Virus record (IMG/VR): IMGVR_UViG_2778261182_000006
Direction: 5' to 3' (one strand)
DNA from: a virus
Taxonomy: Duplodnaviria; Heunggongvirae; Uroviricota; Caudoviricetes
Length of the DNA: 4,533 nucleotides
The position numbers and the translations under genes are program-made. The notes beneath the pieces are model-generated. The model saw only the letters and a program-made list of their open reading frames with translations, was not told where the DNA came from and made no database searches. This document shows, piece by piece, positions 411 through 1,358 of the stretch (position 1 is the first letter of the stretch; each line of letters begins with the position of its first letter).

Positions 411-1358
411 TTACCCCCTGAAGCCCGGCGGAATTTCGGTATCCGGTTCAGAAATGTGATTCACGCAACGCTGTACAGGCGAACGCCCCAGACGAATAAC
501 CAGCTCATCCCATTTTTCGCGAAGCTTTGACGGGCTCATGACGTTTTTTACCCAGAATGGATCCCGCTGTACCCGACCAAACATTTCGCAAATTTGTCTG
601 TGAGTTCTGCCATCCAGCATCCGCATTGTGCGCACATCATTGGCCCATGCAGTCCAGTTTGGTTCTTTCGGTCGCATGATTTCGCCATCATCGCTGGCAG
701 CCTGCTCGTAAAGACTCACGATTCGTCCCCAGATCCACTGCGCACACGCTAAATCTTCCTGGCTACCCCACTGGCGTTTTTTCGCACTGAACACAACCGC
801 GTCAGGGTGTCGGGTTAAAAAATCCTGTTCAGCCGTCTGCGGGTCCGGTTGCGAAGCGTCCGGACAAGAAGATCTTTTATCTGACGGATCAGGTTTTAAT
901 ACTGACGGATCGGGGCCAACCATCGCCCCCCTATCCGGCTGTTTTTTATCAATGGTTGATCCATCAAAATTTGAGGGGCCAACCGTTGAGAGGTCAATAT
1001 TTGACGGGTCATTTTTTACCGGGTTAATTTTTCTTTTCGGTTTATATGCCTCACGCGCCGCCGCTGCTGCTGCTTCGAGTTTTTCCACATTAAGACGGTA
1101 GATATTGCTTTCATTACGCCCACCGACCTTACGTTCCTCCTTCGTCAGCCAGCCGTTCTTTTCCAGTTCCGCTATCGCAGCTTTAACCGTTGATTCACTC
1201 TTTGCCCCAATCTGACGACGAATGGTCTCCACTGCAGGCCATGACACACCTTCGTCATTGCTGTAATCTGCAAGGCGAGCCATTACTGCCACCCTGGATA
1301 AGATCATGCCGGTGAAGGCACACCCTTCCCAGACAAGACCATGAAGCTTGCTGCTCAT
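411..1358 (-). CDS. Phage replication initiation protein: N-terminal DNA-binding (wHTH-like) region, low-complexity Pro/Asp/Ser linker, DnaT-like C-terminal domain
   Basis: 315-aa ORF from the track; GGAG about 7 nt upstream of the ATG (revcomp of 1365-1368). The C-terminus ...HISEPDTEIPPGFRG matches, by my recollection, the C-terminus of E. coli primosomal protein DnaT (...[14 protein letters not shown]). The N-terminal region (AVETIRRQIGAKSESTVKAAIAELEKNGWL) looks like a winged-helix DNA-binding segment. It lies downstream of the cro-like and cII-like genes, as O/ydaU-type replication genes do. The linker-encoding DNA contains iteron-like repeats, as in lambda O/ori. Confidence 0.8.
   Translation of the reverse strand: MSSKLHGLVWEGCAFTGMILSRVAVMARLADYSNDEGVSWPAVETIRRQIGAKSESTVKAAIAELEKNGWLTKEERKVGGRNESNIYRLNVEKLEAAAAAAREAYKPKRKINPVKNDPSNIDLSTVGPSNFDGSTIDKKQPDRGAMVGPDPSVLKPDPSDKRSSCPDASQPDPQTAEQDFLTRHPDAVVFSAKKRQWGSQEDLACAQWIWGRIVSLYEQAASDDGEIMRPKEPNWTAWANDVRTMRMLDGRTHRQICEMFGRVQRDPFWVKNVMSPSKLREKWDELVIRLGRSPVQRCVNHISEPDTEIPPGFRG
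878..1050. repeat. Iteron-like repeats and short palindromes followed by an AT-rich stretch inside the rep gene; putative phage replication origin
   Basis: Seen directly: CTGACGGATC at 881-890 and 902-911 (21 bp apart) and TTGACGGGTC at 1001-1010; GGGGCCAACC at 912-921 and 975-984; palindromes TTGATccATCAA (956-967) and GTCAAtatTTGAC (993-1005); AT-rich 1011-1050. The region encodes the repetitive linker (PSNIDLST / PSNFDGST). The ori assignment is by analogy to lambda, where ori lies within the O gene linker. Confidence 0.4.

Follow-up and report, generated by a model that had tools for sequence, protein, structure and literature searches.

The stretch of DNA analyzed here, 4,533 nucleotides from a virus of the Caudoviricetes (IMG/VR record IMGVR_UViG_2778261182_000006) and referred to below as the window, carries the gene of a replication initiator that ends in a short peptide closely resembling the end of a host protein, the primosomal protein DnaT. 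The initiator consists of a winged helix, a disordered linker, a C-terminal domain of the type found in the O protein of phage lambda and a disordered DnaT-type tail (Table 1). Comparison of phage, prophage and plasmid initiators showed, as far as sequences can tell, that this tail is a selected and portable module, and that its presence is associated with the gene content downstream of the initiator. The initiator of the window, whose tail closes with the residues GFRG, probably recruits the helicase-loading machinery of the host.

The relationship with DnaT is confined to the very end of the protein. Without gaps, the last 21 residues (VQRCVNHISEPDTEIPPGFRG) can be aligned with residues 159-179 of E. 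coli DnaT, with 14 of the 21 identical, and over the final 19 residues (RCVNHISEPDTEIPPGFRG) the identities with the end of DnaT are 14 of 19, in agreement with a first-pass annotation of this DNA that had recognized the end of DnaT in the C-terminus. The Protein Data Bank (PDB) chains hit in this alignment were 2ru8, 6aep and 9zbt (E between 0.013 and 0.043), and positions 160-179 of the 179 in the NCBIfam DnaT model NF002770 matched the same 20 residues (E 0.0045), these E-values of single tail matches being marginal. The consensus of the tail reads R-x-V-N-x-I-S-x-P-D-x-x-I-P-P-G-F-R-G-COOH, and the pattern RD.N..S.PD..IP.GFRG(AK) is kept in 105 DnaT orthologues. When the last 19 codons were compared with those of dnaT from strain K-12, 6 were found to be identical, 8 differed only synonymously and 5 changed the amino acid. 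As 14 of 19 residues are identical despite the 8 synonymous differences, it is the peptide and not the DNA that is conserved. That the tail was captured recently from dnaT of the host was also considered, and was ruled out by these synonymous differences and by a nucleotide identity of 65%.

Likeness to DnaT stops around 20 residues from the C-terminus, and neither phmmer nor NCBIfam gave a match beyond the last 20-21 residues. The three-helix domain with which DnaT binds single-stranded DNA (ssDNA) and PriA (PF17948, residues ~84-153) was absent from the initiator in Pfam searches and in profile and fold comparisons, and alignment by hhalign of the family of the initiator's C-terminal domain with that of DnaT, built from orthologues and phage copies, gave a probability of only 0.5%. 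Neither the N-terminal oligomerisation domain of DnaT nor its acidic PriB-binding linker found a match in the initiator with phmmer or NCBIfam. The similarity that had been anticipated over the C-terminal 80 residues therefore holds for the last ~20, and not for residues ~236-293, where none was detected. By these comparisons the initiator falls outside the DnaT family and belongs to the superfamily of initiators that share the lambda O C-terminal domain, with an N-terminal domain that is not that of lambda.

These data bear on the mechanism proposed in the same annotation, according to which the tail would be a fused DnaT module that brings the initiator into the PriA/PriB/DnaT restart-primosome route, for instance through binding to PriA or PriB. 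The match of the tail to DnaT and the absence of a P-type loader are in line with it, as is the existence of two classes of initiators (L117 and L065) that carry a genuine PF17948 DnaT domain together with the tail. The initiator of the window, however, lacks this domain and has that of lambda O in front of its tail. Moreover, DnaT uses its three-helix C-terminal domain to contact PriA and its acidic linker to bind PriB (PMC13377028), not residues 154-179, so the parts that would make both contacts are missing here, and we consider this route distinctly unlikely. In the cryo-electron microscopy (cryo-EM) models of the preprimosome the C-terminal domain of DnaT was built from PDB entry 4OU7 (residues 84-153) and the tail was left unmodelled; lying outside the models, the tail is presumably free.

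The N-terminal domain of the initiator matched the Pfam family HTH_36 (PF13730) with an E-value of 5.4e-8 and 33 bits, over a gathering cut-off of 25. The AlphaFold2 (AF2) model of this domain contains helices and a beta-hairpin, with values of the predicted local distance difference test (pLDDT) of 68-83, and Foldseek matched it to winged helices of the MarR, ArsR and PadR types, as expected from the winged helix suggested in the first reading. The iteron-binding domain Phage_rep_O (PF04492) was not found in the initiator by Pfam, being present in the O proteins of lambda and HK140 and in class L028; the HTH_36 domain is the functional analogue of Phage_rep_O, a winged helix of a different family. 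Residues 177-288 are 40.2% identical (tblastn, E 4e-18) to the P-interacting C-terminal domain in the O proteins of lambda, 933W and H-19B, with relatives also in Stx phages and phi80, and an exhaustive search for the family of this lambda O domain returned 2881 representative proteins. Both the tail (residues 293-315) and the linker (residues 107-165) had pLDDT values below 50 in the two predicted models, and the length of the linker and the number of its repeats vary among homologues. The protein is thus a chimera, as had been proposed, made of HTH_36, a lambda O C-terminal domain and a DnaT-type tail.

Compared with lambda O, the homologous helical C-terminal domain is found in the same order of parts (DNA-binding domain, flexible linker, C-terminal domain and short tail), the linker-coding DNA is likewise repetitive, and the gene is also placed after cro/cII-like genes. 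Differences lie in the N-terminal domain (Phage_rep_O in lambda versus HTH_36), in the tail (...TDWIYGVDL versus ...IPPGFRG) and in the P gene, which has no counterpart here.

A candidate replication origin was located in the linker-coding DNA. The 9-mer TGASGGRTC, allowing up to one mismatch, has 8 matches in the window against 2.5 expected window-wide, and 6 of them lie within 129 nucleotides; direct repeats of CTGACGGATCRGG are spaced 21 nucleotides apart in the same DNA. The GC fraction is 0.42 at positions 1000-1059 and 0.38 at 940-999, compared with 0.45-0.58 across most of the remaining gene. We infer that the origin may lie inside the linker-coding DNA, as ori-lambda lies inside gene O, with the caveat that the 9-mers also encode a repeated DPS peptide.

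In order to relate the tail to its surroundings, we compared tail types with downstream genes. Members of the initiator family share a core that is conserved up to ...SPSKLREKWDEL, and thereafter they continue with discrete types of tail: those of the GFRG type, such as ..PD..IPPGFRG, DYSQIPAGFRG and DYSLPENSGFRT, and others of the form W..GW..L or of the lambda type DWIxG... In a survey of the family with one genome per species (79 loci), lambda P was downstream of none of the 43 initiators with GFRx tails, which were followed by a DnaC-like gene in two cases, whereas Phage_lambda_P was found downstream in 12 out of 12 cases of W..GW..L and DWIxG tails (Fisher p = 2e-12 versus GFRx). Individual gene contexts agree with this split, and a tree of the core domain required at least 10 changes of tail class, some between cores up to 89% identical. 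Ten downstream open reading frames (ORFs), 6 after GFRx and 4 after WxxIW tails, were assigned by Pfam to methylases, PerC, ParB, KilA-N and DUF968.

The same pattern was seen in viral contigs. Among the matches listed, 107 initiators ending in IPPGFRG were followed by a DnaC/YdaV-like gene (55), directly by DUF977 (43) or by other genes (9), and in no case by lambda P; YdaV and DnaC are 50% identical. The window itself belongs to the second group, since the gene following its initiator is DUF977, in keeping with the first-pass statement that this gene is not DnaC-like in its visible part and with the suggestion that the initiator does not work through a loader of the lambda P type. A fourth tail class, WxxIW (...GRKAWAGIWQQAAEQ...), was observed in homologues from Providencia, Proteus, Yersinia and Buttiauxella that have neither an adjacent loader nor GFRG (loci L156-L164, L167, L169, L175, L199, L201, L207, L210, L216 and L220).

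The distribution of the tail extends well beyond this family. Scanning of viral contigs for IPPGFRG followed by a stop codon yielded at least 120 loci. In all 120 of the matches listed the motif was the in-frame C-terminus of a protein, with the likeness reaching upstream (..N..S.PD..IPPGFRG); among them, 103 were complete ORFs of at least 200 residues (210-408) and 17 were ORFs cut by contig ends or short fragments. Such uniformity indicates that the tail match is more than a chance one, its marginal single E-values notwithstanding. The 103 complete ORFs fall into nine or more classes whose cores are unrelated. The HTH_36/O C-terminal domain class of the window accounts for at least 46 loci and a 358-residue "replisome organizer" class for at least 30, and further classes include one of the Phage_rep_O type, the two that have a genuine DnaT domain, and others. 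Initiators combining PF17948 and the tail were observed in the viral contigs L117, L065, L056, L072, L080 and L103. Another of the classes is that of YdaU of the Rac prophage, a DUF1376 protein with the end ...RQVNTVSLPDSAIPPGFRG.

Two plasmid Rep families, unrelated to each other, carry the tail as well: the RPA initiator (PF10134) of an IncU/IncX6 KPC plasmid, ending in ...GEPDSEIPPGFRG (L222:1-1029; NZ_MF156711.1), and a Rep_3 initiator of WH1-WH2 structure on Serratia plasmids (L223:1625-2563; NZ_CP132300.1). In phage LLS (PQ299149), which is cultivable and grows on E. coli K-12, a solo "O family protein" (L221:34213-35067) is made of HTH_36, Phg_2220_C and the GFRG tail ...VDTKIPEGFRG. 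All named proteins with a GFRG tail are from Enterobacterales. In a comparison of prophage tails with the DnaT tail of the host itself, which has variants such as GFRGAK, the two sets covered different species.

Two further observations were made on homologues. One of them, P0289 (347 residues), carries the tail motif twice in a row (...YSIPKGFRGHDENEG...VETEIPHGFRG), the behaviour expected of a short linear motif. The 90%-identity cluster of P0242 contains GFRG-tailed initiators of 323 residues together with DnaC-like ATP-binding proteins of 246 residues, a mixture probably due to fused or mis-called initiator-loader ORFs, as these genes lie 6 nucleotides apart.

The tail-coding DNA is also a point of exchange. 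A single mosaic block is made up of the 63 nucleotides that encode the tail, the 40-nucleotide spacer and DUF977, and positions 371-474 of the window are ~95% identical to L005:3961-4064, a locus of the "organizer" class whose initiator core is unrelated to that of the window. To judge from this alignment, it is at the tail-coding segment that recombination joins the block. It could be argued that the tail is kept mainly for this reason, the 63-nucleotide segment being the exact boundary at which unrelated initiator cores are joined to a common downstream block, or else that it is a regulatory or degradation tag, for instance one recognized by a protease, with no role in helicase loading. The O protein of lambda is an unstable protease substrate, which would fit such a tag. 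Conservation at the level of the peptide, with many synonymous changes, speaks against a mere joint, as does the presence of the tail in places that have no mosaic joint of this kind, namely chromosomal dnaT and plasmids, and a degradation tag would leave the anticorrelation with lambda P unexplained. We regard both versions as highly improbable.

Several known systems are similar to that of the window. Among lambdoid phages, 34 out of 314 have an O gene only, and the way in which these replicate has been said to be something that "is not yet understood", with phage LLS as an example (Genome Res 2025, PMC12315714). The initiators of LLS and of Shigella phage SfII (gp41, with the tail ...DYSQIPAGFRG) share with that of the window the HTH_36 domain, a tail of the GFRG type and the lack of any gene for a helicase or loader following the initiator; they differ in that LLS has Phg_2220_C as C-terminal domain and in that both tails are shorter, without the N..S.PD part. 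The YdaU-YdaV pair of Rac has in common with the window the tail, an immunity context of the ydaS/ydaT type and DUF977 downstream, and a YdaV-like loader follows the closest relatives of the initiator. YdaU, in contrast, has a DUF1376 N-terminal domain and an unrelated C-terminal domain, and its loader gene has no equivalent in the window. DopC from Cellvibrionales and Oceanospirillales is described as joining HTH_36 to a DnaT C-terminal motif (HHpred match to 2ru8) and as having a lambda-O-like origin (Brezellec et al. 2017, PMC5509034); it differs in being chromosomal, paired with the P-like DopE and devoid of the O C-terminal domain.

Taking these data together, we lean, if only slightly, towards a modular initiator that uses its DnaT-type tail to dock the host DnaB-DnaC complex, the parts that we infer being the binding partner and the place where the origin lies. 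The N-terminal winged helix would presumably bind the 9-mers inside the linker-coding DNA of its own gene, as in the ori-lambda arrangement, and the tail would act as a short linear docking motif joining the origin-bound initiator to the enterobacterial helicase-loading machinery of the DnaC type. The loader recruited would be the host DnaB-DnaC at the locus of the window, and the phage-encoded DnaC paralogue in those relatives that have one. In function the GFRG tail would parallel the lambda-type tail (..DWIxG..) and C-terminal domain, which recruit P-DnaB, and the initiator would copy the output end of DnaT, not the input end that binds PriA and PriB.

A number of points weigh against this docking model. 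The binding partner is deduced from gene content, and, because the tail is encoded beside the downstream gene, the association between tail and loader could be due in part to linkage in mosaic exchange, not to function. The authors who described the preprimosome structure favour DnaT's N-terminal domain as the recruiter of DnaB/DnaC. The WxxIW tails of Providencia, Proteus and Yersinia are also loader-less but do not have GFRG, and in DopC the motif from the DnaT C-terminus reportedly goes together with a P-like protein (PMC5509034). In addition, the locus resembles those of cryptic prophages and may be inactive.

Removal of residues 154-179 from DnaT also weighs against docking, as it merely doubles the dissociation constant for ssDNA and lowers cooperativity (PMC4132743), a small effect that points to a role in DNA binding or oligomerisation. 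In such a case the tail would be a DNA-binding or self-association element raising cooperative ssDNA binding or oligomerisation at the unwound origin, and not a docking motif. In the same study DnaT 84-153 bound dT30 with about half the affinity of DnaT 84-179 and with lower cooperativity (PMC4132743); furthermore, the tail contains Arg and Phe and is preceded by helical domains in all of its carriers. However, this effect in DnaT is small, and the same peptide is found on unrelated folds, including the plasmid Rep_3 and RPA initiators, so that a shared self-association surface is unlikely. A generic DNA-binding tail would not be expected to be strictly excluded from lambda P modules either, and the upstream part of the tail is net acidic (EPDTE). 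We consider such a role unlikely.

A broader version of the docking model, which we put forward tentatively and think less probable, is that ..N..S.PD..IP.GFRG-COOH could be a general enterobacterial "helicase-loading ticket" binding DnaC or DnaB-DnaC. It would be the handover link of DnaT to DnaB-DnaC, and it would have been acquired repeatedly by unrelated phage and plasmid initiators to make use of the host loader, with dnaT-dnaC as a domesticated prophage pair of the ydaU-ydaV type. An interaction between DnaT and DnaC has long been suspected from the structure of their operon (PMC5778457). The intergenic gap is 2 nucleotides in dnaT-dnaC (L004:739-2018), 6 in ydaU-ydaV (L008:3620-5230) and 6 between the initiator and the IstB-like gene of relatives. 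It is on these similar gaps and on the phage initiators with a full DnaT domain that the speculative domestication is based.

The features of the initiator gene and its downstream flank are collected in Table 1.

Table 1. Features of the initiator gene and of the DNA downstream of it in the window (aa, residues of the initiator; nt, nucleotides).
Feature	Position (nt)	Strand	Description
Replication-initiator gene	411-1358	minus	315 aa plus stop (411-413); ATG start; from the ORF list
Winged-helix DNA-binding N-terminal domain, aa 1-105	1044-1358	minus	Pfam HTH_36 at aa 25-71
Disordered Asp/Pro/Ser-rich linker, aa 106-172	843-1043	minus	AF2 pLDDT < 50 for aa 107-165
Helical C-terminal domain, aa 173-292	483-842	minus	Homologous to that of lambda O
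Disordered C-terminal tail, aa 293-315	414-482	minus	aa 295-315 (nt 414-476) match the DnaT tail; pLDDT < 50
Six iteron-like candidate 9-mers, TGASGGRTC	882-1010		Also encode the repeated DPS peptide
A+T-rich stretch, putative unwinding region	1000-1059		Adjoins the 9-mer cluster
Spacer, 40 nt, from initiator stop to DUF977 start	371-410	minus	Without loader gene
DUF977 gene, first 123 codons, cut at the window edge	1-370	minus	Pfam PF06163, E 3.6e-27

The rest of the window is of a prophage type. An overlapping ydaS-like/ydaT-like pair, as found in immunity regions, occupies positions 1382-2063 of the minus strand, and a three-gene toxin-antitoxin module of the paaR2-paaA2-parE2 type (an HTH_3 regulator, PaaA2 with E 3e-22 and a ParE toxin) occupies 2173-3083 of the plus strand. 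A divergent toxin-antitoxin module beside a ydaS/ydaT-like pair is the arrangement of the cryptic prophage CP-933P. The locus is an ordinary lambdoid-prophage initiator locus, possibly a cryptic one. A 68-residue ORF with CxxC...CxxC spacing was also noted at 3498-3704 (minus strand); in the syntenic E. coli prophage region L006, a gene beyond the repressor gene is annotated as "ECs_2282 family putative zinc-binding protein". An Rfam scan of the window detected no RNA families.

With respect to the loader, the nearest relatives of the initiator (96% identity) have an IstB_IS21/DnaC-like gene, DUF1627 and DUF977 downstream, and the window is the loader-less version of this order. When examined as a possible O-only module, it showed no loader within its limits after the 40 nucleotides from the initiator to DUF977, and the equivalents in L005 and L006, which share the block of tail, spacer and DUF977, are free of loaders further downstream too. 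This state might mean nothing in functional terms, the gene being a decaying remnant from whose cryptic prophage the loader and DUF1627 were deleted; both genes lie between the initiator and DUF977 in the 96%-identical relatives, and the ydaS/ydaT-like and paaR2-paaA2-parE2 neighbourhood is typical of cryptic prophages. Such a decay appears very unlikely, having in mind that the ORF of the initiator (411-1358) is intact, that the order tail, spacer and DUF977 recurs in at least 43 viral contigs, on initiator cores of two kinds, and that the viable phages LLS and SfII have GFRG-tailed initiators without a loader. It would, in any case, bear on this locus and not on the meaning of the tail.

As regards annotation, the 994 homologues of the initiator are described solely as "helix-turn-helix domain-containing protein", also in related E. 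coli prophages, and the phage homologues as "DNA replication protein O" or "primosomal protein". Some similarity to DnaT is already reflected in such names, SfII gp41 being a "primosomal protein" and some Klebsiella copies a "primosomal protein I". In a full-text search of the literature we found no description of the tail as a motif, of its spread among phage and plasmid initiators, or of its anticorrelation with P. The tail motif is a well-supported and apparently undescribed lead on helicase-loader recruitment.

One 20-residue peptide links the unmodelled tail of DnaT, the initiators of O-only phages, prophage initiators paired with a DnaC paralogue and two plasmid Rep families. It bears on two questions that recent papers flag as open, among them the replication of O-only lambdoid phages (PMC12315714). 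If the proposal is true, the tail would be one more short docking motif common to the replication proteins of mobile elements and of their host, it would serve as a marker predicting the helicase-loading route of a phage or plasmid, and it would support a phage origin of dnaT.

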